A DNA stretch of 64,000 nucleotides from Haliea sp. (GTDB lineage Bacteria > Pseudomonadota > Gammaproteobacteria > Pseudomonadales > Halieaceae). Location of the stretch: the NCBI GenBank assembly GCA_031409615.1, contig JANNXP010000141.1, positions 25 to 64,024 on the forward strand. Reading direction: 5' to 3'. Below are positions 1,291 to 13,300 of this stretch, one piece after another. Every line of letters begins with the position of its first letter. Position 1 is the stretch's first letter. The position numbers were made by a program, and so were the translations under genes. Under the pieces are notes generated by a model. The model was not told the DNA's origin. It did not search any database and saw nothing but the letters and a program-made list of their open reading frames with translations.

Positions 1291-1367
1291 AATAATATCT
1301 CCAAATTGAAATGACCGAACCGACATTGGTTCGATGGAGATACTCTAAATTTCGTTAGGTTGGACTA

Positions 1368-1407
1368 CTGGGTAGTAAGTAGTAGCAATTGAAACATAAC
1401 AACCTGA
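1368..1407 (-). promoter_or_regulatory. Degenerate copy of 40-bp palindromic box upstream of DUF927 gene
   Basis: CTGGGTAG-N24-CAACCTGA; same 24-nt spacer length, TAA start and ATAA end as the 6374 copy. Confidence 0.5.
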
Positions 1408-1516
1408 AATGATTCAGACTCGATTAGACATACAGTGCCAGTTTTTGTGTCTCCACCTCACGATAGCGGTCATTCTGGCCTGGATAAGTGCAGGGGCCGC
1501 TGCCACCTCACAGCGG

Positions 1517-1586
1517 TCCTACCGTAGAAGTCACCGGCGCTGCGCGGCTTTATCTCGCAGCGTCCGTCTGGACTGCCGGGTTAGGG
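1517..1586 (-). other. attC (59-base element) recombination site, R' mutated
   Basis: Minus strand CCCTAAC-CCGGC-AGTCCAGA-CGGACGCTGCG...CGCAGCGCCG-GTGACT-TCTAC-GGTAGGA; hairpin with bulged base; upstream ORF stop codon inside R''. Confidence 0.75.
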
Positions 1587-1814
1587 ATTGGGTCGACTAT
1601 CAAGGCGATGCTTTGCGTCAGCTATTAGCGACTCAAGCGCCCCAGAATCTCGCACCGAACTGACGACGACCTCTGCCATAGTTATCAATGCCTCGTCGTT
1701 AGACCCAAAGACTCTGAATCGGAGCTTTTGCCCATAGTCCCATATTTCGGCAGCGCAGCGATACGGAGGAAAAGCAGCTTCGATGTGTGAGCAAATATCT
1801 TGATCAGATAGCAT
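1581..1814 (-). CDS. Hypothetical 77-aa protein in integron-like cassette
   Basis: GGAG RBS within core-like GCTAGGA (1824-1830); stop TAA inside attC R''. Confidence 0.6.
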   Translation of the reverse strand: MLSDQDICSHIEAAFPPYRCAAEIWDYGQKLRFRVFGSNDEALITMAEVVVSSVRDSGALESLIADAKHRLDSRPNP

Positions 1815-1832
1815 TTGGGATGCTCCTAGCTT

Positions 1833-2270
1833 TTAGCGAAAGCGCTGGCAATAGACCTTTGAAATAATGAACGAGCCTGCTTGTTGATTGTCAGACCCGG
1901 AAACGATGTATTTCATATGCATACCCTGATCAAATGACCACTTGATGTCGTTGTCGGAGCAATTGCGCTGACCTATAAGTTCTTGCGCTTTAGCGAGAAA
2001 GTTCTGATCAAGATGAGCGGATGGGTAGTTCACCATCTTGATGTGATAGATGGTTGATGCTGTGCTTGCCTCAACTCTAGTGAGTTGCGTCTGGCTGTCC
2101 AGCATTGCCGGAAGCCCAAGATTCAAATCGACATTCGATTTAGCTGCCGCTTGCTGTTTATCTTGAAGAGTTGCAACTTGCTGAGGCGGTTTTTGAGCAG
2201 CGCGGCGTTCGATTTTGAAAATCGTCCAAACGAACACAACAACGATGATGATACCGATGGTCTTGAGCAT
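1833..2270 (-). CDS. Membrane-anchored exported protein, GspS/AspS pilotin-like or PA3611-like
   Basis: N-terminal TM segment; LPAMLDSQTQLTRVE...C...C pattern. Confidence 0.5.
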   Translation of the reverse strand: MLKTIGIIIVVVFVWTIFKIERRAAQKPPQQVATLQDKQQAAAKSNVDLNLGLPAMLDSQTQLTRVEASTASTIYHIKMVNYPSAHLDQNFLAKAQELIGQRNCSDNDIKWSFDQGMHMKYIVSGSDNQQAGSFIISKVYCQRFR

Positions 2271-2664
2271 ATAAACCGATAACAGTTAAGTGTACGGCAC
2301 CAACCGTATAACATGTTGCCGCCTAACACCAGAACGAGCATCCCGGAGGAACGGTTTTTCTATTTTTTCTCAACAGCTTAAAAATCTCGATTGTTATACC
2401 GTCAGGATAGTCTGCTCTCGCCGTATAACACCCTTCAGCACCTTTGTCGGTTTTGCCACTACTCAGGCACTGTTAGGATCGGCTGAACTGAATGCGAGTG
2501 GTTCGGTCTTTTTGATAGCACAGCTCAGACGGTCGCTTTTAGGCGAGGCTGTGTGAAAACGCAAAGACCGACAAAAGGAACTGAAAATTCTGGATTAATG
2601 GCTAGGTTAGAAAGAGACAACTTTAAAACCACTCTACTTCTGACCGCTGCTAAAAATGGGGGAA

Positions 2665-3141
2665 TTACCGAGGGTCATCCAATCTTAAAGCAGTAACGAC
2701 TCCATTCTCCGTGTTGCAGATGACGGATTGGTAGTATGTGGTGTCCCCTGAGGAGAGATTGTCGAAAAAGCCGCCCCCTGGATTCCTAACCTTTGGTTTA
2801 AAAGGCACCTCCTTCGCAGCGAGATAAATCTGGTATTTCATATACCCGACGACACGCGCCTCGTTACGCAAATTGGTACGTGAAGCGTAAGAACCATATC
2901 CGCTTAGATACGGGTCTCTATCTGGATAGGCGGACCTGACCGCACTCACACAACTCGCTATTGCATTATCTAGGTCACGGTTGGCAATTTTGTCCACATT
3001 GTCAGCAACCTCGTCCACTTTATTGCCACCTTCTATCATCACACCTATAATTTTGTCGCATCCGCTTAACAGCATCATCGCCCCAATGATTAGAGAGCCA
3101 CCAATCGCAGGAACCCAGTATTTCATAGTCATCGGCACCAC
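2665..3141 (-). CDS. Hypothetical lipoprotein
   Basis: Signal peptide with lipobox LLSGC. Confidence 0.6.
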   Translation of the reverse strand: MVPMTMKYWVPAIGGSLIIGAMMLLSGCDKIIGVMIEGGNKVDEVADNVDKIANRDLDNAIASCVSAVRSAYPDRDPYLSGYGSYASRTNLRNEARVVGYMKYQIYLAAKEVPFKPKVRNPGGGFFDNLSSGDTTYYQSVICNTENGVVTALRLDDPR

Positions 3142-3517
3142 CCGGTCAGCATTAAAGTGTCTAACGATAATGCTAGGTTAGACCCCTATGTTTTTACTGG
3201 AAACCGATAGATTACGCAAGTTCTTACATCTTTCAGAGCTGAGGATACTACCTTAGTTGACTGGATCAGTCGATCCCAAATCAACAGCTAGAAGAGGCAG
3301 CATACCCTGAAGGGAAGGTTAATTCTCTCTAACGCCAAGGGCCGCATTTAGGTGCGAGGCGGGAGTTCGTGCTCCAGGCTCAGCTAAGGCCGCTATAGAG
3401 TAGTAAAGCGGACGTACACCGGTGAGTTTTCGACGAGTAATTTTTGTCTTTTCCCACGTCAAAGCAGTACTTTCAGCAGTCATGACCTAGTGTCCGCTTT
3501 CATCAGGAAATTACGGT

Positions 3518-4075
3518 TCAAAATTTATTGCCCGCGCTTGGGTTTGACACTGGCCCTTCTCTGCCCCCCAGTGGTCTATTGAAGTACTCGTCTTTATAGT
3601 AGGAGTCTACTGAGCAACTATACTGCTCATACAGACCTTGTTGACGACCTCTGTACTTCTCCATCAAAACGGCACTTAAGTTTTTCCTATTTATGTGAAA
3701 CTCCATTCCAGTATCGTTCGATATTCTCCAGTCAACAAAATATATGATCGCGTAATTGGCATCACTAAAGTCAACATGTGTGGTATACCCCTCACTGGCG
3801 GTGTCGAACAGATTTATACCGCAGAAATATTTGTTGGCAATAAAACCGCCCTCTATCGCGTATTCCTTACCCCTCAATACGTGAACCTCTAAAGAACCGC
3901 ACCTATTTTTTCTGTAAGGCTTACATGAGAGAATCTTGTAAACTTCTAAAGACTCGCAGAATGAGTAGCTTCCATTATTTATACATAGCTTTTGCTTTGC
4001 GCTATCACACCCACCAAGGAAAAAGGCAATGACCAAAAGAAGGGGGATATATTTGGTATAATTGGCGATGCGCAT
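3518..4075 (-). CDS. Hypothetical lipoprotein
   Basis: Signal peptide with lipobox FLGGC; GGGAG RBS. Confidence 0.6.
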   Translation of the reverse strand: MRIANYTKYIPLLLVIAFFLGGCDSAKQKLCINNGSYSFCESLEVYKILSCKPYRKNRCGSLEVHVLRGKEYAIEGGFIANKYFCGINLFDTASEGYTTHVDFSDANYAIIYFVDWRISNDTGMEFHINRKNLSAVLMEKYRGRQQGLYEQYSCSVDSYYKDEYFNRPLGGREGPVSNPSAGNKF

Positions 4076-4173
4076 GAAAGCTCTCCCATCTCGAGTTTCA
4101 GCCGCTACATTTTGCTGTGATAAAAAACAAAGGTATTAACTCAGCTACTTAGTCTTAGATTAGAGAACGCGTC

Positions 4174-4545
4174 ATGATAAGTCAAATACTGGTGCTCTGT
4201 ACTTTTTTCTTGGTAGCGCCTGCCAGTGCCCAAGACAATTCCGACAAAGAAGCAGAAGAATTTATCGCTGCATTCACCCTCGAAACTGTCGTTGAAAAAT
4301 CTATTAATGAAGGAGCAGAAGGCCTTTATTATACCGGCTACCTGGATGCTGCGATCCATTCCGGTCAGTTCACGATAGCTCGAGATTCCGGATTGAATTA
4401 CTGTCCGCCTGGTAACCTAGCGGTTAACCATGCCACCGTTTGGAGTTCCTTCGATAGGTTCGCTGCCGCAAACTCGAAAAGCGCAACTCAAATGCATACG
4501 ATGCACAGCATCGTAACTTGGCTTTTGTGGATGTTCCCGTGTTGA
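4174..4545 (+). CDS. Rap1a/Tai-like periplasmic immunity protein
   Basis: Signal peptide, GYLDA...YCPP...FPC terminal pattern typical of Rap1a family. Confidence 0.55.
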   Translation: MISQILVLCTFFLVAPASAQDNSDKEAEEFIAAFTLETVVEKSINEGAEGLYYTGYLDAAIHSGQFTIARDSGLNYCPPGNLAVNHATVWSSFDRFAAANSKSATQMHTMHSIVTWLLWMFPC

Positions 4546-4801
4546 GGCGCGGCATGGGAAGCCGCGCTCACTGGCGCGAATGACCGCTATAAGTCGGCTG
4601 CGGCACTCAGGGCCAGTATAGCCAAAACGACCGCTTCTAGGTGCGATTAGAGACCTCCTGCTTCCGGATATTGCCCTTTTAAAAGGTCCGCTTCCGGGAA
4701 AAGTGGTTACTAGAGCTACGCCCGATAGTACACTATCTGTCGGATTCGCTCTGGTGTTTCACAATTACCCGGAATAGATTTTCTACATTTACCTCAGCAC
4801 T

Positions 4802-5980
4802 TTATGGAGGCGTTCCAAATCGTCGTGCAACGAGGGTTTTGATCCTAGCTTCGATGATGTTGTGTGTTTTTTCACCAGCAACACATTCACACCAGGAACG
4901 AATAATATCTCGAAGCTCAGAAGATTTCCCGTTTTTTGTCGGTAGCCCTATAGGCGTTGCTTCAAGTTCATAGGTGTAACCCTGCCGTTTTGCAAAGGAC
5001 ATATCATTCGATTGCGCCGCAACGGCAGAGATGTAGTTGTAGCGACTGTGTATAGCTTGGCCACCTTTCTTCAGTGCTTCTACATCTCGATCAATAGCCT
5101 TTTCGGTGTCCTGTGGCAGACGTCTAAACTGAGTATAAACATCAAAGTTCAATATATTGGTAATCAGGCGCACAGCCAAGAGAGTTGGCGCAATCAAACG
5201 AGCATCGACTTCTCGTTCAAAATAATTCAGATCATCAAGTTTCGCCTGTAAGTCATCTATGGTGGCCTCCAACTTCTCAATGAAAATGTCATCAAGAAAC
5301 CTTAGCTCCAAGCGTTCTGCCATTGGCGTAGTGATGGAGGTATAGAGCTGTCGGAAGTGCTTAATCGTGTTATCAATCTGTTCTTTTTCAGCATCAAGAT
5401 CTCGCTGTATTACCGAACCGGCAATTCCGCCGGATTTTTTGATAACCTCCTCATCTTCTTTATACATAGCAAACACCCTAGCGAGGCTTGCATAAACATC
5501 CATCCTGAAAAATTCCGGGTATGGTTCCTCATGCAGTTTCTTAAAATTTGCTTGGTCTAATGGAGCAAAGTGACGAAGATACTTTTCGGTAGTCGCTGAA
5601 ATTTGCGCATCCTTAAACAGCTCCTCGTATGCCTTGCACTTTTTTGCCGCGATGACTTTCGGCTTCCATATCTTGTCATAGTGAGACTGACTTACCGTTA
5701 CGTAATCATCAGCTGTGATCTCTGGCAAAATATCTCCAGTGTCCGGGTGAACCACCACAACACGACCATTGATATTTCTCGCTATAGGATCTAGACGGTG
5801 CATAAATATCTGTGCTCCCCCACTGTAGTCCTTTAAATATTCTCCTGTAGTAAATATGGTTCGGTCAGAAGATTTAGGCTCGTAGCCGTGTCGATCTCCT
5901 CCATAAAATGTGGCAGCAAAATCGCGTAGATCTCTGGCAGTTACACTGAACGCTTTACCTGGCTTTTTTGTTTTTGCCAT
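4802..5980 (-). CDS. Hypothetical 392-aa protein, coupled to the HTH gene
   Basis: Long ORF; TAATG stop/start overlap at 5978-5982. Confidence 0.75.
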   Translation of the reverse strand: MAKTKKPGKAFSVTARDLRDFAATFYGGDRHGYEPKSSDRTIFTTGEYLKDYSGGAQIFMHRLDPIARNINGRVVVVHPDTGDILPEITADDYVTVSQSHYDKIWKPKVIAAKKCKAYEELFKDAQISATTEKYLRHFAPLDQANFKKLHEEPYPEFFRMDVYASLARVFAMYKEDEEVIKKSGGIAGSVIQRDLDAEKEQIDNTIKHFRQLYTSITTPMAERLELRFLDDIFIEKLEATIDDLQAKLDDLNYFEREVDARLIAPTLLAVRLITNILNFDVYTQFRRLPQDTEKAIDRDVEALKKGGQAIHSRYNYISAVAAQSNDMSFAKRQGYTYELEATPIGLPTKNGKSSELRDIIRSWCECVAGEKTHNIIEARIKTLVARRFGTPP

Positions 5981-6312
5981 TAGGTGTCCATTCCTCGTGC
6001 ACGGGTGTTTATGGTGTCTACCTCAGCCAGATGCTTATATTTAGGTCGGGTGGCTAAAAAATGATCGAGGTCTGTCTTCAGGTACTTCACAGGCTTGCCA
6101 ATCTTAATGAATTTGGGTGGATCGCCACCATCGGAAATAATTCCTGTCTTTCTGACCTTCTTGAGCCATTCCTCGCTCATGCCAAGGTAGGTCGCTGCCT
6201 CGCTGGTATCCAGTACCAGCCTGTCAGAGCGGTCCAAGGAAGACGATCTGAGCGTGCTGAGAATCGCCTGAAGTGTACTGTCTATCTTTGAAATGTCGAT
6301 GATGTCGTTCAT
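5980..6312 (-). CDS. Excisionase/AlpA-like helix-turn-helix protein
   Basis: LDTSEAATYLGMSEEWLKKVR...PPKFIKIGKPVKY, downstream of integrase. Confidence 0.8.
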   Translation of the reverse strand: MNDIIDISKIDSTLQAILSTLRSSSLDRSDRLVLDTSEAATYLGMSEEWLKKVRKTGIISDGGDPPKFIKIGKPVKYLKTDLDHFLATRPKYKHLAEVDTINTRARGMDT

Positions 6313-6373
6313 TGTCTGGCCTATTTGACTCGGTTGACTGTGAACGAAATATATCGATCACCGAACTAGGTAG

Positions 6374-6413
6374 CCGGGTAGTAAACACATCAAAATCGCG
6401 CATAACTACCCAG
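6374..6413 (-). promoter_or_regulatory. 40-bp palindromic box upstream of xis
   Basis: CCGGGTAG-N24-CTACCCAG, plus extra CTAGGTAG at 6366-6373. Confidence 0.6.
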
Positions 6414-6419
6414 GCTAAT

Positions 6420-7682
6420 TTAGTCCGCCAATAACTCAACAGCGCCTGCCTTGTGGTCCTGAGCCAAGTGAGCATACCGGAGCGTGGTTCCCAGATCCGA
6501 ATGTCCCAATAACTCTCGTATAGTGTTCAGAGGCACACCGAGCATCACTAGCCTGCTAGCGAAGTGATGCCGTAAGTCATGGAATCTGAAGTCAGTAATA
6601 CCAGCAGATGCCAATACAGACTGCCACGCCGTCTTGATATCCACAAACCGGTTTTCGTTTCGGTTCTTGAACACCCAACCAGAACAGGGTGATTGCTGTT
6701 TACTCCAACTCGTTAATACCTCCATAGCCCGCTTGTTCAGGTTTACATGGCGCACCTTGCGGGATTTAGCATTAGCCGCCCGTACGGTGATTACTTTTTG
6801 ATCGAAATTAACGTCATGCCATTTCAGGCAAAATATCTCTCCTTTTCGAAGACCCGTATTAATGGCTAATAGCACCATAGGTTCAATATGGTCTACAAAC
6901 TCCCCATCCTTGAATTCGGGATACAATTCGTACCCTCGGTCTGCACGCCAGTCGTTGGCACTGGCCCTAGCTTCTGCTAGCCCACAGTGACGAAGCCGGA
7001 GGGCTTTATAGAGACTCCCCTCCTCCACCTTCGACAGATAACGGATCATCTCATCGTCCTCCTGCCTGAGGTTCTTCACTTCGGCTAGCGGATTCGTATC
7101 AATATGCTTTGTTGCAATCGCTCTTGAGAACACAGCCCGTAAGCAAGTCAGATTGCGATTAACTGTTGCTGGCTTAACTGGATTACCCTGCTTGTTGGTC
7201 CGGGCCAACTCCCCTACCTGCCACTTTTCGATCTCGGCAGCTGTAATCAGGGCTATTGGCTTGCTCATCAAGTGGTCAAAATAACGATTCAGCACATAGA
7301 TGTTTGAGCTACCTCTTTTGTTGTGCTTCAGTACCCATGGCTCGTAGTGCTCCTCAATAAATACACGCAACGTCATCGCTTGATTTCGAATCGCATTGTC
7401 TCGCTTAATCTGCTTCTCCGCTTGGGGATCTTTACCTGTGGCAATATCCCCTGCCGTGGCTTTTGCCATTTCCCGAGCTTGGGTTAGAGTCACATCCCCA
7501 TGCCTACCTAGTTTCAACCTGACCCGTTTACCCGTATTAGACTTATAGCTAAAATAGTAAGTCCGTCTACCGGTGGGCTGTATCCGCAACAGAAACCCTG
7601 GCAACTGAATATCAACTGCTTCATAGGGCTTGGCTTCGGGGATCAGTGAAATAATGCTCTTTTCAGTAAATTTGATTTTCAT
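6420..7682 (-). CDS. int: Tyrosine recombinase/integrase with N-terminal arm-binding domain (P4-like)
   Basis: TGLRKGE, HDLRHH, LGH, RYAH catalytic motifs; GFLLRIQPTGRRTYY arm-binding N-terminus. Confidence 0.93.
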   Translation of the reverse strand: MKIKFTEKSIISLIPEAKPYEAVDIQLPGFLLRIQPTGRRTYYFSYKSNTGKRVRLKLGRHGDVTLTQAREMAKATAGDIATGKDPQAEKQIKRDNAIRNQAMTLRVFIEEHYEPWVLKHNKRGSSNIYVLNRYFDHLMSKPIALITAAEIEKWQVGELARTNKQGNPVKPATVNRNLTCLRAVFSRAIATKHIDTNPLAEVKNLRQEDDEMIRYLSKVEEGSLYKALRLRHCGLAEARASANDWRADRGYELYPEFKDGEFVDHIEPMVLLAINTGLRKGEIFCLKWHDVNFDQKVITVRAANAKSRKVRHVNLNKRAMEVLTSWSKQQSPCSGWVFKNRNENRFVDIKTAWQSVLASAGITDFRFHDLRHHFASRLVMLGVPLNTIRELLGHSDLGTTLRYAHLAQDHKAGAVELLAD

Positions 7683-7741
7683 TGGAACCTCTCTAGTCTG
7701 TTGAACTGGATCAACAGCCTAAGGAGGAAAGACATTGATAT

Positions 7742-7781
7742 CTGGGTAGCTAAAGGCATCAAAATGCGAATAACTACCTAG
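7742..7781 (-). promoter_or_regulatory. 40-bp palindromic box upstream of int
   Basis: CTGGGTAG-N24-CTACCTAG; shares CATCAAAAT and ATAA with the 6374 copy. Confidence 0.6.
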
Positions 7782-7822
7782 GTGGGAAACCTGAACGGAC
7801 TGCATTCAGATGGAAGCAAAAC

Positions 7823-7944
7823 TTAAGTCCGTATTAAGTCCTTAAGTCATACTCTCAGGGATTCTTCAGTACCCCCTGCATAACCATTAACCTGTATCCA
7901 ATCAAATATTAACTGAATATAATCAATGTATTACGGGGTACTGA
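7823..7944. repeat. Short repeats beside att (candidate arm-type sites)
   Basis: TTAAGTC(C/A) x3 (7823, 7834, 7842); perfect IR TCAGTACCCC (7866-7875) / GGGGTACTGA (7935-7944). Confidence 0.5.
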
Positions 7945-7984: not shown

Positions 7985-8029
7985 CTCCTAAGGGGAAGGC
8001 CGCGTGTTCGAATCTCGCAGGGCGGACCA
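7985..8029 (+). tRNA. 3' half of tRNA-Arg(CCT); att-site remnant, not a complete tRNA
   Basis: Anticodon loop CTCCTAA, GGGGA, T arm GCGTG-TTCGAAT-CTCGC, AGGGCGG-A-CCA; no matching 5' half upstream. Confidence 0.75.
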
Positions 8030-8483
8030 CTAACATACTGATATATAACATTGTATATTGAATTGGTGGAATTGTTATTTGGAGTAAATCTCCTCGTAAG
8101 TGCAACGGGTCACACTTCCTTCGATTCAGGCGTCGCACATATAGGTTAGATTCACAAATTGCGATCGCGAACAGAACAAGCCAAAGAGTATCTACCAGCG
8201 GCATGAATCAAAAGTTAAATAACGGCAAGCCTGAAGACTGCCTGAAGTGAGGCTCGCCTTTATTTCAATAGCAGACGACCCAGTAAACCGAACGTCTTAT
8301 TGAAATTCTAGCAGTTTGCGTCGTGGTCAACCTTAGAGATATTAGTGTTGTATCATCTTTGAACTCCGACTGGCCGATGCTACTTAAGATGTAGTTATTG
8401 TTCAGTGTCTGCCTGATAAACTGGTTCACGCCGGACTAAGGATACCGCTGCATGGATAGCACACAGGATTATATAAAGATGGA

Positions 8484-8641
8484 GCAACGCAGGCTGACAT
8501 TGAACCAGTAGGTTCCGACTTCATTCTTAACGAGGCCATTGGCACCCGCGGTGAGCAATCGACTTCAGGACAGCAGGCAAGGCTGTGGAGTCGCACAGGC
8601 AAGCTGCTGGCGACGACCGAAAACTGGGCTGGTTCAGGTAA
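8484..8641 (+). pseudogene. C-terminal remnant of a thioesterase-family gene
   Basis: DFILNEAIGTRGEQSTSGQQARLWSRTGKLLATTE then 1-nt frameshift into LGWFR*; no start codon. Confidence 0.45.
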
Positions 8642-8706
8642 GCGGGCCGTAAGGGGATTTATAAGTTAGCTGTCCTGCCTGCTCGGCTGCGCCAGTGATG
8701 ATCGGA

Positions 8707-9384
8707 TCAGCACAGCTGAACACCCACTGCGGTTGAAGGAATGCGATGGCGGGTAGTGATGCCCAGTGCACACAGACCCAGCGCCATAAGTGCCAAGGTG
8801 TTGGTAATCGGAACCGATGACGCAGTGGCATTCCGTACGAACCACGATCCCGTTACCCCGTCCTGATTACCCTTAAGCGTACCACGATCAGTATATGCCC
8901 ACTGAACGAAAGTACTGGGTGGGGCGGAGGCCGCCACCATTAGGGTGAGGTACGGATTGCCATCGAAATCGAGAGTACGGACGATCGCAGAAATAGCGGC
9001 GCTCCTCGAAAACTCTTCCTGCGGCGTCGTGAGCAAAAAGCCGTCGTGAGTCATGCTGAAAATCCAGCTATTGCCGAATTCAATTAGATTATCAGGCCCA
9101 GGGCCCAGCGCCGTAGATCCCAGGTAATAGTTAAAGAGACCATTCACATTGTCGACACTTGCCCAAGTCCAACCTGTGAGATCGTTGCCCCCCAGGGAGC
9201 CATTACATGACCCGGATGAGGCATCACAAACCGTATTGATGTCGTTCCAGCTATAGCCAATGAAATCCACCGGTTGCAACCATTCCAGCCCACTCACCGT
9301 GACGGGGGGCAGCAATGCGGCACTTGCAGATCCGGCCGTCAAAGAGATTAACAAAACAACCAATAAACCTGTTTTTCTTATCAT
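8707..9384 (-). CDS. PEP-CTERM-type exported surface protein (degenerate sorting signal)
   Basis: Signal peptide from ATG 9384; C-terminal VPITNTLALMALGLCALGITTRHR; paralogous to 9699-10367. Confidence 0.75.
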   Translation of the reverse strand: MIRKTGLLVVLLISLTAGSASAALLPPVTVSGLEWLQPVDFIGYSWNDINTVCDASSGSCNGSLGGNDLTGWTWASVDNVNGLFNYYLGSTALGPGPDNLIEFGNSWIFSMTHDGFLLTTPQEEFSRSAAISAIVRTLDFDGNPYLTLMVAASAPPSTFVQWAYTDRGTLKGNQDGVTGSWFVRNATASSVPITNTLALMALGLCALGITTRHRIPSTAVGVQLC

Positions 9385-9698
9385 TAATAATTCCCTCGTC
9401 CTGTCAGCTGCCAGTTCGTCTTGCATTCCCATACTGCACTATACGACAACGCAGTGGAAGACTGGACAAGATCATGTGTAAACCTCCCCATTTTAGTGAA
9501 ATCCCAAATTGGAGTTTTCCGCCCGCTCATGTTTGGCCAGATACTCCCAGTGTAAACCTCCATATAAACTCCAAAATGTACTGCCAGAATTTCAATTAGC
9601 CAACAATGACAGCACTGGCAAAGGCGAAGGCCGCTGGGATTGATGTGGATAAGGCTATTGCTGTTAGTGGCGTGGGATACCTGAACCCGGTTGGGGGG

Positions 9699-10367
9699 TT
9701 AGGTGTGTTGCTTTTGCTTCCGGCGAGTGTAGCCAAGAGCAGCGAGGCCCAAGCCTAGTAGGGGCAGGGTTGCGGGGACGGGGGCTTCTGTTGGTGGTTC
9801 TGATTGGTCACGGAAAAACCAGCCTCCGCGCGTGGGAGACACAGTGCCCACCCCAGTGAACTGGTCTGACGAAAAGGTGTCCGTCCGAGTTTCCGCTGTC
9901 CCGTCTTGTATGCTTGTTGAGTAGGCTAGCCCGGACCCATTGAGGTTGCGCAAAATGCCGCGCATACGACACTGGCCCGAGGGGCCAGCCTCACAGTCCA
10001 AGGGGATGAAGTCTTCAAAGAACGCCGGGGCCCACAAAGAATTACGCTGCGTGCGATTGCCCGGGACGAACGGATGCAAAAGGGGAGAAAAACCTGCGTC
10101 CGAGAGATACACATTAAATAAGCCGTTGATCTCGTGAATTCCCGCCCACATCCAGCCCGTTAAATCATTGCCGCCAGCACCCCCGGTGCAAATACCTGTG
10201 CTCGCGTCACACGCAGTGGCGATATCATTCCAGCTAAGATTTACAAAATCTCTCGGTTGTAACCACTCCTGCCCATTCACTGCAACGGCCGGCATCAATC
10301 CGGCATTCGCAGCCCCAGCCAAGCTAAACACCAGTGCGGCCATTGATCTACCAATTGCCTTGAACAT
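9699..10367 (-). CDS. PEP-CTERM-type exported surface protein
   Basis: Signal peptide; C-terminal VPATLPLLGLGLAALGYTRRK. Confidence 0.85.
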   Translation of the reverse strand: MFKAIGRSMAALVFSLAGAANAGLMPAVAVNGQEWLQPRDFVNLSWNDIATACDASTGICTGGAGGNDLTGWMWAGIHEINGLFNVYLSDAGFSPLLHPFVPGNRTQRNSLWAPAFFEDFIPLDCEAGPSGQCRMRGILRNLNGSGLAYSTSIQDGTAETRTDTFSSDQFTGVGTVSPTRGGWFFRDQSEPPTEAPVPATLPLLGLGLAALGYTRRKQKQHT

Positions 10368-10406
10368 CCTTATTCCCCATTATTCTATTCACGATCAATT
10401 AGACAG

Positions 10407-10421
10407 GCAAAATACGAGCCA
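10407..10421 (-). promoter_or_regulatory. Sigma-54 -24/-12 promoter
   Basis: TGGCTCGTATTTTGC with GG-N10-GC spacing, 40 bp upstream of the PEP-CTERM gene. Confidence 0.7.
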
Positions 10422-10474
10422 CGTCAATAAACACGTTGGTTGTGGCTCTACCTCTCGCGACTTGGCGGGGTTGT

Positions 10475-10491
10475 TGTAAAGAATCCTGACA
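10475..10491. promoter_or_regulatory. Candidate enhancer (bEBP) site
   Basis: TGTAAAGAATCCTGACA (TGT-N11-ACA) upstream of the sigma-54 site. Confidence 0.45.
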
Positions 10492-10613
10492 ACTCAAAGT
10501 GGGCGCCAAATACCGCAATCATCCCAGCGGGTCGTATTCTTCGTCATCCTCAATCGGCGCATTGTCCCAGCAGTTTCCTCGGCGACTCATGCTCTGCTGC
10601 ATGCGGTAGATGA

Positions 10614-11720
10614 TTACTTCCTTCGCTCAATTGCATTGAACGCCTGAGTGACGCGTTGTAGGTAGTTGTCTACGTAAAACTTTTCTATTGCTTGCTGAAC
10701 GGCCTTCCCTTCAGGTAGTGTTTTTCCATCGACTATTTGCTGTAGTAGTTCGGCTAACTTTTCTTTGTGCCCTGAGGCATATAAGCTGCCATTAACAGAC
10801 TCAGCAATAATTTCCAGTGGCCCCGTTTCACAGTCAGAACTAATTGCATAAATTCCATATGAATTAGCCTCCAGCAGAGCCATTACCAACCCTTCGTATT
10901 TGGACGTCAATATGAGGCTTGTTACCTCGCGCAGCGATTCCGTAATATAGTGCCACGGGTCATTTTGCCAACCATGCCATCGGATCTGGCCTGTAATATT
11001 TAGTTTATTGGCAAGTGCTTTTAACTCAAATTCATCTTCGCCTGAACCAACAATATTGAGCATCCAATCGCCTTTGACAAAGACTAACGCTTCAAACAAT
11101 TCGCGCATATTTTTCTGCCCATCGGCAATCACGCGACCAACATATATGAATTGTTTAGTTTTTTCTGGTCTTGGAATAATGACTTCATGACGGGGTACAG
11201 GATTGTAAATTGTAAATATCGTCTTTCCATCAACTCCCATTTCGATGAGCTGATTTGTAATTCCGTCACTAATGGAAAGGTGACCATCCGCTCGACATAG
11301 ATATCTTGCCCTTGACATGCTGGTTACAGAAAAATGGACCCATGAAAGAACAACAGTTTTATGAAATGAAAATTCGCGAGCCATAACACTAATAAAACAA
11401 AGAATCGGATCCAAGCTAAGGATCAAGTCTGGTTTTTCATGACGAAATATTTTGCGTAGAGAATTTGCAAGAAACAAACGCCCTAATTTGCGGTGTCTGA
11501 CTGGTGGGGTAATTTTGCAGTAAGCCTGGCCAGCCAGCCAGTCATCGTTCACTTCCCTTCTAACTTTCCTATTCGTTTTTGCCGCTCTAAAAAAAACTAA
11601 TGAAATATTGATCGTTGGTTCACTAGCTCTAAGTAGCGTAATGAATCTAAGGATGACGGTTTCCATGCCGCCCAACCCGCTGAGTTCATTGCCTACGATG
11701 ATCACTCTATTTACTTCCAT
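10614..11720 (-). CDS. waaB: GT4 glycosyltransferase, LPS 1,6-galactosyltransferase WaaB-like
   Basis: [43 protein letters not shown] motifs colinear with enterobacterial WaaB. Confidence 0.75.
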
Positions 11721-11781
11721 AGAGACGTACTCCGCGTTGATTCACAATGAAAGTTTCTCTCATAGTGAGATCTACTAGATG

Positions 11782-11810
11782 TTGCATGAATACCGTGTAT
11801 CCGGTATTTT
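11782..11810 (+). promoter_or_regulatory. Sigma-70 promoter with operator for higBA
   Basis: TTGCAT-N17-TATTTT; ATACCG-N6-CGGTAT palindrome at 11790-11807. Confidence 0.7.
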
Positions 11811-11816
11811 CGGCAT

Positions 11817-12106
11817 ATGATCACATCATTTGGCAACAGGGCACATCTGACCTATTTCACGGCATACCTAGCCGCTATGCCAGAAAGCTGCCAAGCCAAA
11901 TACACGAACTCGCGCTGTACAAGCTCGATGTTCTGAATGCTGCTCAAGCCCTTGATGACCTACGCTCTCCTCCGGGAAATAGGCTCGAGACTTTAAAGGG
12001 TGAACTTAAAGGCTTTTGCAGCATTCGCATTAATTCCCAGTGGCGTATCATTTTCCGCTGGATAGACAGTAGCGCCACCGATGTTCAAATTTTGGACTAT
12101 CACTAG
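11817..12106 (+). pseudogene. higB: HigB (RelE/ParE family) toxin with 1-nt deletion near 11842
   Basis: MITSFGNRA in one frame, TSDLFHG...DLRSPPGNRLE...SIRINSQWRIIFRW...DYH in another. Confidence 0.75.
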
Positions 12107-12123
12107 CACTTGAGAGGTATCAT

Positions 12124-12414
12124 ATGATTCCCAGCAATAGAACAGCAACACATCCAGGAGTCATTTTGCTCAAAGACTTTCTTGAGCCACTGGAATTGAC
12201 ACAAACGGCATTGGCGGCACACGTCGGCGTCCCGGTGCAACGAGTAAATGAAATTGTTCGTGGCAAGCGCGGCATTACACCAGAAACAGCATGGCTTCTT
12301 TCTGAAGCATTGCGTACAACTCCAGAGTTTTGGCTTAACCTTCAGTCCACTCATGATTTATCTGCAAATCGTCCCGATCATCATGTTGGGCCTTTGGTTG
12401 CTGCGGGCATGTAA
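12124..12414 (+). CDS. higA: HigA antitoxin (HTH-XRE)
   Basis: THPGVILLKDFLEPL...RVNEIVRGKRGITPETA...FWLNLQ. Confidence 0.92.
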   Translation: MIPSNRTATHPGVILLKDFLEPLELTQTALAAHVGVPVQRVNEIVRGKRGITPETAWLLSEALRTTPEFWLNLQSTHDLSANRPDHHVGPLVAAGM

Positions 12415-12465
12415 CAAGACCATGTTGCGGACAACTTACGGTTGCCGCAAATAGCGGCGTGAAGG
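12409..12465 (+). other. attC site terminating the higBA cassette
   Basis: ATGTAAC-AAGAC-CAT[G]TTGC-GG[A]CAAC-TTACG-GTTGCC-GCAAATA-GCGGC-GTGAAGG; two bulged bases; higA stop in R''. Confidence 0.7.
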
Positions 12466-12539
12466 CCCACTGACTAACTAATCCCGATGATTTATGCTAT
12501 TACTGAGCGGCAAACTACGTCCACATCGAGGCTATTCAA

Positions 12540-12866
12540 ATGACCGTCAGAAAAATCGTTAGTTGCTTTGCGTTACTCACTGTCTTCTTTGCAACCGCGT
12601 CCATAGCCGTAGCACAAGACGGTAGCACTACTGGCTCTACGCCAACTCTGGTAGCTCCTGATACCGATGCCTTTGAGCAGGAAAAAGCAGAGGCCAAGGA
12701 ACCCGCTGGCGAATGTTGTCATACTAGAGGGGTTCCAGAGTGCGGCGGTGCTTGCGATATTTGTTGCGAGACGGGCGAACAAGCGTCCTGTGTCGCGGGT
12801 AGCTGCGATCCGAACAACACATTTGCCTGCACGTGTGCAGTGACCACATCGTGCAGTTGTAACTAG
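12540..12866 (+). CDS. Secreted cysteine-rich small protein
   Basis: Signal peptide, acidic/Thr linker, 12 Cys in the last ~50 aa. Confidence 0.7.
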   Translation: MTVRKIVSCFALLTVFFATASIAVAQDGSTTGSTPTLVAPDTDAFEQEKAEAKEPAGECCHTRGVPECGGACDICCETGEQASCVAGSCDPNNTFACTCAVTTSCSCN

Positions 12867-12889
12867 TCGCCGTATACAACGTGTGTCTG

Positions 12890-13300
12890 CTAAGGGGCAG
12901 GCACAGTACGGTGCGGATACAATTCAGCGGTCAGGCGGTAGAGCGCGGTGTCGAAACTATCCTCCGGATGTTCTTTGCAATACTTTTCCAGCCATACCAT
13001 GATCGTTTTCGTGTTCTTTTTGCCGGCAATATCGTAGGTGTTAGGCGCTAATCTGTTGATGGCCGTTAGATAGCCCATGGTGTACAGCGAAAATTCGTAG
13101 AGGGTGCCCCAGTTATCCTGGTCCTTGGCCTTGCTTAACGCGCCATTGAGTCCTGCACAACTTTCTACCGCGCTCATTGCTCGCACCTGATACTGCCTGT
13201 CTGTATCCGCAGCAAAGCCAGGGGCACTTGTCACGGACAACACAACAGCCAACAGGACGAGGGGACAACTGCGGCGCGGCGGCATCACAGTAGGCCGCAT
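12890..13300 (-). CDS. Exported hypothetical protein (HdeA/Rap1a-like helical fold?)
   Basis: Signal peptide; SC...GYLTAIN...WLEKYCKEHP; TGATG overlap with upstream gene. Confidence 0.6.
   Translation of the reverse strand: MRPTVMPPRRSCPLVLLAVVLSVTSAPGFAADTDRQYQVRAMSAVESCAGLNGALSKAKDQDNWGTLYEFSLYTMGYLTAINRLAPNTYDIAGKKNTKTIMVWLEKYCKEHPEDSFDTALYRLTAELYPHRTVPAP

Follow-up and report, generated by a model that had tools for sequence, protein, structure and literature searches.

A recurrent inverted-repeat box upstream of the integrase, excisionase-like and replication genes of an integrative element resembles Rep origin iterons

Introduction

Small integrative elements that carry int, an excisionase-like gene and a self-loading helicase, such as PICI-like satellites and SCC-like elements, are common, and little is understood of how they link excision with replication when no repressor is present. 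The C-terminal winged helix of SaPI Reps binds iterons of 5-6 nt, and opposed iterons surround an AT-rich centre (PMC9371898). The origin of the self-loading Rep helicases of SaPIs and PICIs lies directly after rep (PMC9371898, PMC6092414). Here we describe a 40-base box that recurs upstream of three genes in an element lying at the left of a 64-kb stretch of Haliea sp. DNA (the window). Like SaPI/PICI origins, the box has short G-rich repeats of 6-8 nt opposed around an A+T-rich stretch. Unlike them, it has one repeat per side rather than 2-6, fewer than any characterised SaPI/PICI-type origin, and in place of a single cluster of 6-12 iterons right after rep, the window holds three dispersed pairs, each 60-78 nt upstream of a start codon over promoter-like sequence. 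In mini-F, the repE promoter is autoregulated by RepE dimers, which bind inverted repeats located there (PMC13028717). The window element resembles these operators in having inverted repeats of iteron-like sequence at the rep promoter, an arrangement by which the initiator controls its own synthesis, but its initiator, a DUF927 AAA+ helicase, is unrelated to the RepE winged-helix pair, its arms are separated by 24 nt, and its operator also precedes int and xis.

The gene order int, small HTH gene, replication gene is that of EcCICFT073 (PMC6092414) and Pf4 (PMC7379572). A further likeness to the AlpA and XisF4 systems is that of a small excisionase-like protein that turns on itself and replication, with the repressor gene absent; binding sites for AlpA and XisF4 are not given in the accessible text of the two papers. 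The window element agrees with Gram-negative PICIs in that its int, HTH_17 and DUF927 genes are co-oriented on the minus strand and adjoin a tRNA-Arg(CCU) 3' fragment. It differs in that its regulator scores as HTH_17 (PF12728) and is RdfS-like, whereas EcCICFT073 AlpA is PF05930, and in that its close relatives have no origin cluster after rep; EcCICFT073 also has a D5_N-type Pri-Rep and lacks an 8-24-8 box at both int and alpA. The origin iterons of EcCICFT073, GGTAGAYA, share CTACC with the box arms, a likeness that we treated as coincidence because its Pri-Rep is unrelated.

The int gene of P4 is regulated by Int and Vis. In KplE1, the intS promoter overlaps attL and is repressed by IntS and TorI (PMC2951348). 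As in KplE1 and P4, where recombination proteins repress at this place, the presumed int promoter of the window element falls within the att arm beside the tRNA-Arg site, with the tRNA fragment and int divergent. In those elements the sites are confined to att, whereas the box recurs here at two remote promoters. [quoted passage not shown] A GGG-containing element and a hairpin in the rep leader are also present here. P. aeruginosa AlpA is unlike the window protein, however: it is larger, has a 21Q-like fold rather than an RdfS-like winged helix, and binds as one molecule per site with no palindrome. We rejected membership in this antiterminator model on the grounds of protein size and fold.

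Results

Three boxes precede the backbone genes. Read directly from the sequence, each box consists of an 8-nt arm, a 24-nt spacer and an inverted 8-nt arm (40 bases), oriented on the minus strand. Box 1 (7742-7781), upstream of int, reads CTGGGTAG-24-CTACCTAG on the plus strand and CTAGGTAG-24-CTACCCAG on the coding strand. Its spacer contains a -35-like TTGATG (plus-strand 7757-7762), and a -10-like TATCAA (plus-strand 7735-7740) lies 1 nt beyond the proximal arm. Box 2 (6374-6413), upstream of the xis-like HTH_17 gene and 6 nt past the int stop codon, reads CCGGGTAG-24-CTACCCAG on the plus strand (CTGGGTAG-24-CTACCCGG on the coding strand) and has TTGATG in its spacer at plus-strand 6388-6393. 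Box 3 (1368-1407), upstream of the DUF927 rep gene, is degenerate, with a perfect proximal and a weak distal arm: CTGGGTAG-24-CAACCTGA on the plus strand and TCAGGTTG-24-CTACCCAG on the coding strand. From box end to ATG we measured 60 nt for int (7682), 62 nt for the HTH_17 gene (6312) and 78 nt for the DUF927 gene (1290). The spacers of boxes 1 and 2 have CATCAAAAT in common, which contains TTGATG on the coding strand; its assignment as a -35 element is plausible, and the -10-like hexamers are weak. A simple promoter scan of the window reported no site at any of the three boxes. Spacer G+C is 25-33%, compared with 47% element-wide.

A degenerate pattern search of the 64 kb returned the three boxes as its sole matches, against 0.18 expected from 100 shuffles, and 0/100 shuffles attained three. 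The exact 8-mer CTACCCAG/CTGGGTAG occurs five times in the window, three of them within boxes. The box positions, the three offsets and the shared TTGATG-containing spacer motif of the original prediction were all borne out by these readings. One might still suppose that the boxes bind no protein and are an RNA hairpin, a terminator or a palindrome that arose by chance, given that the int stop codon directly precedes box 2. The count of three against 0.18 speaks against chance; the conserved stem is just 5-6 bp with a loop of 24-28 nt, and the outer arm positions are frequently mismatched; box 1 has no upstream gene needing termination; and box position and spacing are maintained across lineages with differing arms. 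We consider this explanation very improbable.

The backbone genes int, HTH_17, X and DUF927 rep all lie on the minus strand. The first (6420-7682) encodes a tyrosine integrase of P4/CP4 type (PF00589, 1e-32) with an Arm-DNA-bind_3 N-terminal domain (PF13356, 2e-17; 3JTZ). The second (5980-6312) encodes a 110-aa winged-helix protein of excisionase/RDF type (RdfS 8DGL, E 4.7e-6) with an extra N-terminal helix; in a family scan the protein scored with HTH_17 (PF12728) alone. Its AF2 model (pLDDT 75) matches RdfS, BldC, Pukovnik Xis and Tn916 Xis, and it has the hallmarks of an RDF, namely a small winged-helix fold akin to known RDFs and a gene adjoining int. Protein X (4802-5980; 392 aa, function unassigned) starts in overlap with the HTH_17 stop codon and evolves fast, at 17-23% identity among elements; we rejected it as the box binder, since its copies are 17-31% identical in elements whose arms do not differ. 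The DUF927 replication initiator-helicase is represented by its N-terminal 429 aa (1-1290), its gene running past the left edge of the window. Capsid, terminase and redirecting genes had no Pfam or PHROG match in the visible part of the element or in relative L133. The integrase as translated had no record in the contig index, a search with the HTH_17 protein led only to one 3.8-kb contig, and the HTH_17 profile matched nothing among viral contigs. The sequence is recorded in DNA metagenomes only, apart from a 185-nt contig inside the xis and X genes in one run that may be RNA.

Between box 3 and the rep ATG lies a leader structure (1294-1344, minus strand; z = -3.0) in which UAUCUCC pairs with the Shine-Dalgarno sequence GGAGAUA, enclosing an inner hairpin. 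All of its pairs are invariant in the four relatives compared. A search with the leader motif gave just two Halioglobus MAGs among 45 matches.

The boxes are conserved and their arms covary. Boxes were present at the same three places in every relative found with the int/HTH_17/X/DUF927 backbone; the loci number 12 and come from metagenomes and from MAGs of Halioglobus. The position of box 1 was matched in L126, L133, L142, L143, L135 and L139, and that of box 2 in L126, L127, L128, L133, L012, L142, L144, L134/L135 and L139; at the position of box 3, better palindromes occur in L133/L112 (TTGGGTAG-24-CTACCCAG), L012, L126 and L127. The spacer is 24 nt long at all but a single site, and the rep-box spacers are unrelated in sequence from lineage to lineage. 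In 16 class-1 boxes the arm cores hold 2.0 bits per position against 0.1-0.6 for the flanks. The arms vary symmetrically and at all sites within a lineage, as GGGTAG, as GGGTAC/GGGCAC (L144), as GGGGAR (L134/L135) or as a G-run/C-run, GGGGGG (L139). The motif comparison across homologous elements suggested with the original prediction thus found the box kept in all relatives, not lost from them. On this sequence evidence (position, 24-nt spacing and symmetric arm covariation), a shared protein-binding operator ahead of the integration, excision and replication genes is well supported, as had been proposed; the binders proposed with it, Xis/AlpA or Int, are not the best candidates.

Box presence appears to track DUF927 among relatives. 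The outgroup L137/L138 has Int and HTH_17 homologues with an HTH_36 replication gene instead, and the box is absent. L149, the nearest same-backbone outgroup, has a normal origin after rep without promoter boxes, so the placement at promoters is lineage-specific. Recurring 8-24-8 boxes were not found in the Int relatives L001-L011, L058 and L070; matches to the pattern in L004 sit in repeats of about 100 bp that resemble, by eye, integron attC sites. An exact-box DNA search of GTDB genomes gave four matches, all in Bacteroidota contigs, which we took for chance.

A recombination role had also been suggested for boxes 1 and 2, which are similar and have spacers in the same direction; as recombination sites around int they would permit its deletion or inversion. 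This was not supported: every relative keeps int between its boxes, frameshifts and not a deletion account for the loss of int in the decayed copy L012, and four metagenome runs gave no deletion joint, with the proviso that rare forms would escape notice in contigs. Recombination also fits poorly with a third box at rep and a fixed distance to the start codon, and we give this idea almost no credence.

The att arm holds separate repeat families. The att core (7985-8029, plus strand) is a displaced 3' portion of tRNA-Arg(CCU) that spans the anticodon loop through CCA. Loose ends have GGATAGAGCGTCCCC ahead of 7985, which completes the anticodon stem, and the element extends to the left of the core. 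Scans of the window and the att region with ARAGORN and Rfam gave no tRNA and no RNA family, and an att-core repeat was not found in L012, L126 or L133. The tRNA fragment and the int start (7682, minus strand) are divergent, and the 300 bp between them contain three repeat families. Three direct repeats, GACTTAAG/GACTTAAT/GGACTTAAG (7822-7848, minus strand), are candidate RDF or Int arm-type sites separate from the box. These GGACTTAA repeats are spaced 11 bp apart and co-vary with the HTH_17 recognition helix across classes. The GGGGTAC-type repeats (CAGTACCCC / GGGGTACTG, 7867-7943) form another conserved motif. The likeness that had been noted between them and the box arms is only partial, and the repeats stay GTAC-type where the arms became GGGGAR.

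This arrangement bears on whether the arms are arm-type sites of the Int N-terminal domain, in which case Int would repress int itself, on the KplE1 and P4 pattern, and also xis and rep from the distant boxes. Box 1 is part of the att arm, some 200 bp away from the core, and overlaps the presumed int promoter; the divergent tRNA fragment and int form the 'OD' shape, predicted to be autoregulated (PMC2951348); and the Int N-domain differs in each of the three arm classes. Boxes 2 and 3, however, are 1.4 and 6.4 kb from att, and Int relatives of 39-45% identity lack such boxes. We know of no case of Int acting at remote promoters. The CAGTACC and GGACTTAA families, closer to the core, are better arm-site candidates, and a role for Int leaves the likeness of the arms to iterons (below) unexplained. 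We regard Int as an improbable binder.

A stronger case can be made for the 110-aa HTH_17 protein. The box would be its operator, and it would activate the int and rep promoters along with its own, forming a positive-feedback switch on the model of Gram-negative PICIs and Pf4. PICI AlpA turns on its own promoter and drives excision as well as replication (PMC6092414), and XisF4 of Pf4 activates itself and the rep-int operon (PMC7379572). The HTH_17 protein belongs to the RDF-type winged helices; the weakness of the -35 and -10 elements would fit an activator; a half-site of GGTAG followed by A+T-rich TTAT fits a helix-plus-wing reader; and K-to-I in the recognition helix goes together with G-to-C in both arms of the L144 lineage. 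Against this, RDF/BldC-type proteins target direct repeats one helical turn apart (PMC7498355; 6AMA). The recognition helix MSEEWLKK.RKTG is identical in classes 1 and 2 though all box arms differ (T to G), and it tracks instead the GGACTTAA repeats of the att arm, which classes 1 and 2 have in common and which read GGACCATA in class 3. To our knowledge, no RDF/BldC-type protein binds inverted sites with a 32-bp separation. In class 3 the protein is without the N-terminal helix and the 8-24-8 geometry is nonetheless retained, EcCICFT073 has no comparable box at int and alpA, and the likeness of the arms to Rep-origin iterons is again left unexplained. We therefore consider the HTH_17 protein a rather unlikely binder.

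Box arms resemble origin iterons of DUF927 Rep relatives. Distant relatives of the Rep have iteron clusters directly after rep, every one with a GGG core and, in L156, L157, L150, L149 and others, with a SaPI/PICI-type layout. The iterons read CTGGGGAA in L156, GYGGGTACG in L157, CGGGATA in L150 and L149, NGGGACA in L151, L155, L162 and L163, GTGGGGCA in L159 and L161, and AGTGGGAAG in L160; by analogy with SaPIs and PICIs, they would be sites bound by Rep. By sequence comparison, the arms GGGTAG, GGGTAC, GGGGAR and GGGGGG fall within the iteron family of these 11 relatives and are akin to it, although the GGG core is short and the likeness may partly be coincidence. The L156 iteron matches the class-2 box arm, and the L156 origin holds the 8-24-8 unit twice, once on each side of an AT-rich centre. 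The L156 Rep is 40% identical to the class-2 Rep and 31-33% identical to class-1 Reps. Inverted iterons are 29-34 nt apart, start to start, in five origins, compared with 30 in the box. No iteron cluster was found in the 5-6 kb after rep of three class-1 elements (L133, L147 and L148), nor in the 8 kb of the element that the window covers. The existence, conservation, spacing and arm covariation of the boxes, and this kinship to the origin iterons of Rep relatives, are observations; the kinship is the new point beyond the box itself.

Discussion

We propose, at roughly even chance, that the arms of each box are two Rep iterons in inverted orientation, superimposed on the -35 element and spacer of Pint, Pxis and Prep and forming a shared Rep operator and possibly a minimal origin. 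What binds the boxes, whether binding represses or activates, where the promoters lie and any function as an origin are our inferences from the observations. The two arms would be binding sites (core GGGTAG) for the DUF927 replication initiator-helicase and, being 32 bp apart centre to centre, or about three helical turns, would lie on one face of the DNA. They would flank the 24-nt A+T-rich spacer and straddle the core of a weak promoter of sigma-70 type, in which the spacer supplies the -35-like hexamer and the gene-proximal iteron abuts the -10-like hexamer. Because the pair would span the promoter core, Rep bound at the three boxes would set transcription of int, the xis-X operon and rep, most likely by feedback repression in the style of iteron plasmids. 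Such control would tie excision and integration to the state of replication. Since the arms match origin repeats of the Rep family, a single protein probably links replication of the island with its excision.

The lack of an iteron cluster after rep in the closest relatives suggests that at least one box is probably also a Rep loading site, that is, a minimal origin. The window's element may nevertheless have a normal origin, because the Rep C-terminus (presumed to bind DNA) and the left end lie beyond the window. More tentatively, and as a possibility that we would not favour, the family may have no separate origin at all; the three boxes would then be the only Rep sites, serving as minimal origins and operators alike, with Rep as master regulator of the integration and excision genes and with transcription and replication initiation using one common 40 bp.

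If origin-type Rep sites have moved onto the int, xis and rep promoters, the initiator itself would be the coordinating signal, a link that has not been described for satellites or islands. If true, this would also provide an annotation rule for the control regions of the family: iteron-like inverted pairs, 24 nt apart, upstream of the backbone genes.

Three copies of one box in a low-G+C island

The first 8 kb of the window are part of a low-G+C island (47% G+C versus ~58% in the host). Its backbone genes share the minus-strand orientation. They encode a tyrosine integrase of P4/CP4 type that carries an Arm-DNA-bind_3 domain (int, 6420-7682), a 110-aa HTH_17 protein (the excisionase-like xis gene, 5980-6312), a 392-aa protein X of no family (4802-5980; its start overlaps the stop codon of the preceding gene), and a DUF927 primase/helicase-type protein, Rep, whose gene starts at 1290 and continues past the window edge, leaving its 3' end outside. 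The original prediction placed one shared box, an 8-nt arm, a 24-nt spacer and an inverted 8-nt arm, before int, xis and rep. Read directly, the three boxes stand where they were proposed, at 7742-7781, 6374-6413 and 1368-1407, with the predicted arms and spacer and with 60, 62 and 78 nt to the respective ATGs. When the 64 kb were scanned with a degenerate form of the pattern, no other site matched; 0.18 sites were expected by chance. In the third copy the gene-proximal arm is perfect and the distal arm poor. The box spacers are 25-33% G+C.

The boxes are accompanied by promoter-like elements. A -10-like hexamer (TATCAA, TATAAG, TTTAAA, TATATA, TGTAAT and others) usually lies 0-3 nt past the proximal arm, and 16-19 nt before this hexamer the spacers of the int and xis boxes contain TTGATG or a sequence close to it. 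A simple promoter scan called none of these elements; they are weak, and the promoter positions are putative. The rep leader (1294-1344, minus strand) has a predicted fold of -20.7 kcal/mol (z = -3.0), in which UAUCUCC pairs with the Shine-Dalgarno sequence GGAGAUA around an inner hairpin, CGAACC/GGUUCG. This sequence is kept in three relatives (L012, L133 and L127) with all pairs invariant; the predicted fold suggests translational control or attenuation of rep.

A cargo of ~3 kb separates X from the DUF927 gene; it holds small ORFs of 77, 145, 158, 185 and 123 aa (1600-4700) with no Pfam matches. Its content varies: in another sample (metagenome run X3), a variant at 95-97% keeps the backbone and is without ~2700-3300 and 3600-4500. 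At 1523-1584, a stretch of ~45-60 bp (gtcaccggcgctgcgcggctttatctcgcagcgtccgtctggactgccggg) occurs at 15-60x the depth of the flanking contig in four freshwater-sediment metagenomes. It is a short repeat in many contexts, because many different sequences adjoin it on both sides, and it had no Rfam match.

The element was seen from its att end only, its far end lying outside the window. No tRNA gene is present in the window, and 7985-8029 matches the 3' part of a tRNA, from anticodon loop to CCA. In metagenome contigs whose sequence departs from the window immediately before 7985, this position is preceded by GGATAGAGCGTCCCC, which completes a tRNA-Arg(CCU) anticodon stem; 7985-8029 is thus a displaced tRNA-Arg(CCU) 3' fragment, with the element to its left. 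The int gene lies at this end, divergent from the fragment. The same layout is found in relatives, whose fragments differ from locus to locus in their T-stem halves. The att arm contains (i) three direct GACTTAAG-type repeats at 7822-7848, two of them 11 bp apart, identical in the relatives L134 and L135 and replaced by GGACCATA in L139; and (ii) the pair CAGTACCCC/GGGGTACTG, inverted with respect to each other and enclosing 59 nt of A+T-rich sequence (7867-7943). Both repeat families are conserved and are likely candidates for RDF and Int arm-type sites. Beyond att, on its right side, 8031-13000 is also low in G+C (42-53%), carries a group-1 glycosyltransferase gene (10614-11720) and a HigB-like toxin gene (11747-12106), and may be another island or remnant.

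The arms covary between lineages

Searches that made no use of the box found relatives: the integrase led to L012, the HTH_17 protein and its profile to L126-L128, L133-L135, L139-L140 and L142-L144, and a leader motif to L112. The family is rare: about a dozen loci were found, in Halioglobus MAGs and in metagenomes of marine and freshwater origin. The box is kept: in every element it is present at each of the three places covered by the contig. The spacer is 24 nt at all sites except the L143 xis box (25 nt). Over 16 boxes with GGGTAG-type arms (class 1), the cores GGTAG and CTACC carry 2.0 bits per position, their flanks 0.1-0.6, and the first four spacer bases (TTAT) 1.3-1.7, while the remaining spacer is free. 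Rep-box spacers show no relatedness between lineages, and the proximal arm is better conserved than the distal one.

The arm reads GGGTAG in the window, L012, L126, L127, L133, L142 and L143; GGGTAC/GGGCAC in L144; GGGGAA/GGGGAG in L134 and L135 (class 2); and a G-run and C-run in L139 (class 3). Between lineages, such changes always hit both arms and all sites of an element, a pattern characteristic of a symmetric protein-binding site. An RNA or DNA hairpin is not credible, because the conserved stem spans just 5-6 bp, the loop would measure 24-28 nt and outer positions are frequently mismatched. The ~100-bp repeats of a Thalassotalea MAG (L004, 1590-1730 and 3125-3265) that contain GTTGGCTT-24-TAGCCAAC resemble integron attC sites and are unrelated to the box.

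The alternative raised at the outset, that the int and xis boxes recombine with each other, found no support: int is kept between them in all relatives, and no deletion joint occurred in contigs of four metagenome runs, where rare events could escape. A decaying copy in a Halioglobus MAG (L012, 10001-11700 of JAWKZM010000002.1) lost int by frameshifts, not by deletion. This copy has int broken up over three ORFs, a truncated HTH_17 gene and degenerate arms at the int box; its xis and rep boxes are intact.

The X gene belongs to the family backbone, always in the order HTH_17 gene, X, rep (L126 10324-11577; L133 7077-8120; L135 2017-3411; L139 2271-3293). The protein diverges very fast, with 17-23% identity between elements, and matched neither Pfam nor PHROG families. 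X is a poor candidate for the box binder: where the arms are identical, the X proteins of different elements reach just 17-31% identity.

Box arms resemble origin iterons of Rep relatives

A DUF927 profile search of genomes returned 15 more distant relatives (30-36% identity), most of which have a textbook iteron origin directly after rep. The iterons are CTGGGGAA in L156, GYGGGTACG in L157, CGGGATA in L150 and L149, NGGGACA in L151, L155, L162 and L163, GTGGGGCA in L159 and L161, and AGTGGGAAG in L160. Each of these iterons contains the GGG core seen in the box arms. The repeat of L156 matches the arm of class 2, and that of L157 has the GGGTAC core of the L144 arms. The L156 origin (Candidatus Obscuribacteraceae MAG, 6715-7060) has at least 12 CTGGGGAA/TTCCCCAG repeats, including CTGGGGAA-24-TTCCCCAG and GTGGGGAA-24-TTCCCCAG, one on each side of an AT-rich centre. 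Judged by sequence, these 8-24-8 units are the box unit itself. The repeats surround a ~130-bp stretch that is A+T-rich by eye; the origin directly follows rep, which is split into two ORFs and immediately preceded by a Toprim primase gene. In five origins, the innermost inverted iterons lie 29-34 bp apart, versus 30 bp in the box. The apparent likeness concerns motifs of 6-8 nt and is supported by this common geometry.

L156 and L149 share this kind of backbone: the gene for an Arm-DNA-bind_3 integrase is followed, in order, by one for a small protein (of HTH_17 type in L149), one for a primase or X-like protein, and DUF927. The L156 Rep is nearer the class-2 Rep than class-1 Reps. L137/L138, an outgroup with homologues of Int and HTH_17, has a different replication gene and no box. 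In SaPIs, iterons of this sort are bound by the C-terminal winged helix of Rep and lie in opposed orientation on either side of an AT-rich centre (PMC9371898).

Which protein may bind the box

We give about even odds to the reading in which Rep binds the box and the box acts as a shared operator. The HTH_17 protein, an excisionase-type winged helix whose profile matches RdfS (8DGL) and whose structural model resembles RdfS, BldC, Pukovnik Xis and Tn916 Xis with a predicted extra N-terminal helix, is a less likely candidate. Proteins of this kind are documented regulators: PICI AlpA is self-activating and sets off excision and replication (PMC6092414), Pf4 XisF4 activates its own gene and the rep-int operon (PMC7379572), and TorI and IntS repress the int promoter of KplE1, which overlaps attL (PMC2951348). 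However, excisionase-type proteins bind direct repeats, and the HTH_17 recognition helix is the same in classes 1 and 2 although their arms differ; it follows another motif, the GGACTTAA direct repeats of the att arm. The N-domain of Int does differ across all three arm classes, but two of the boxes lie kilobases from att, and binding by the Int arm domain seems very improbable. Other or host factors take up the remainder.

A proposed shared operator at origin-type repeats

Iteron origins, initiator autoregulation at inverted repeats and control of int promoters inside att arms are already known. In EcCICFT073, a studied Gram-negative PICI, there is nothing comparable to the box at int or alpA, and we know of no case in which origin-type inverted iteron pairs with a fixed 24-nt spacing sit on integration, excision and replication promoters. 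No iteron cluster was found within 5-6 kb after rep in the box-bearing elements, and this clade seems to be without a separate origin. One or more boxes may also serve as origin, since no other Rep sites were seen in the closest relatives. With Rep as the binder, the box would be an opposed iteron pair, three helical turns apart around an A+T-rich spacer, overlying the -35/spacer region of three weak putative promoters. By analogy with RepE, which acts at an inverted-repeat operator (PMC13028717), the control would be repression, and Rep occupancy would jointly govern int, xis-X and rep.
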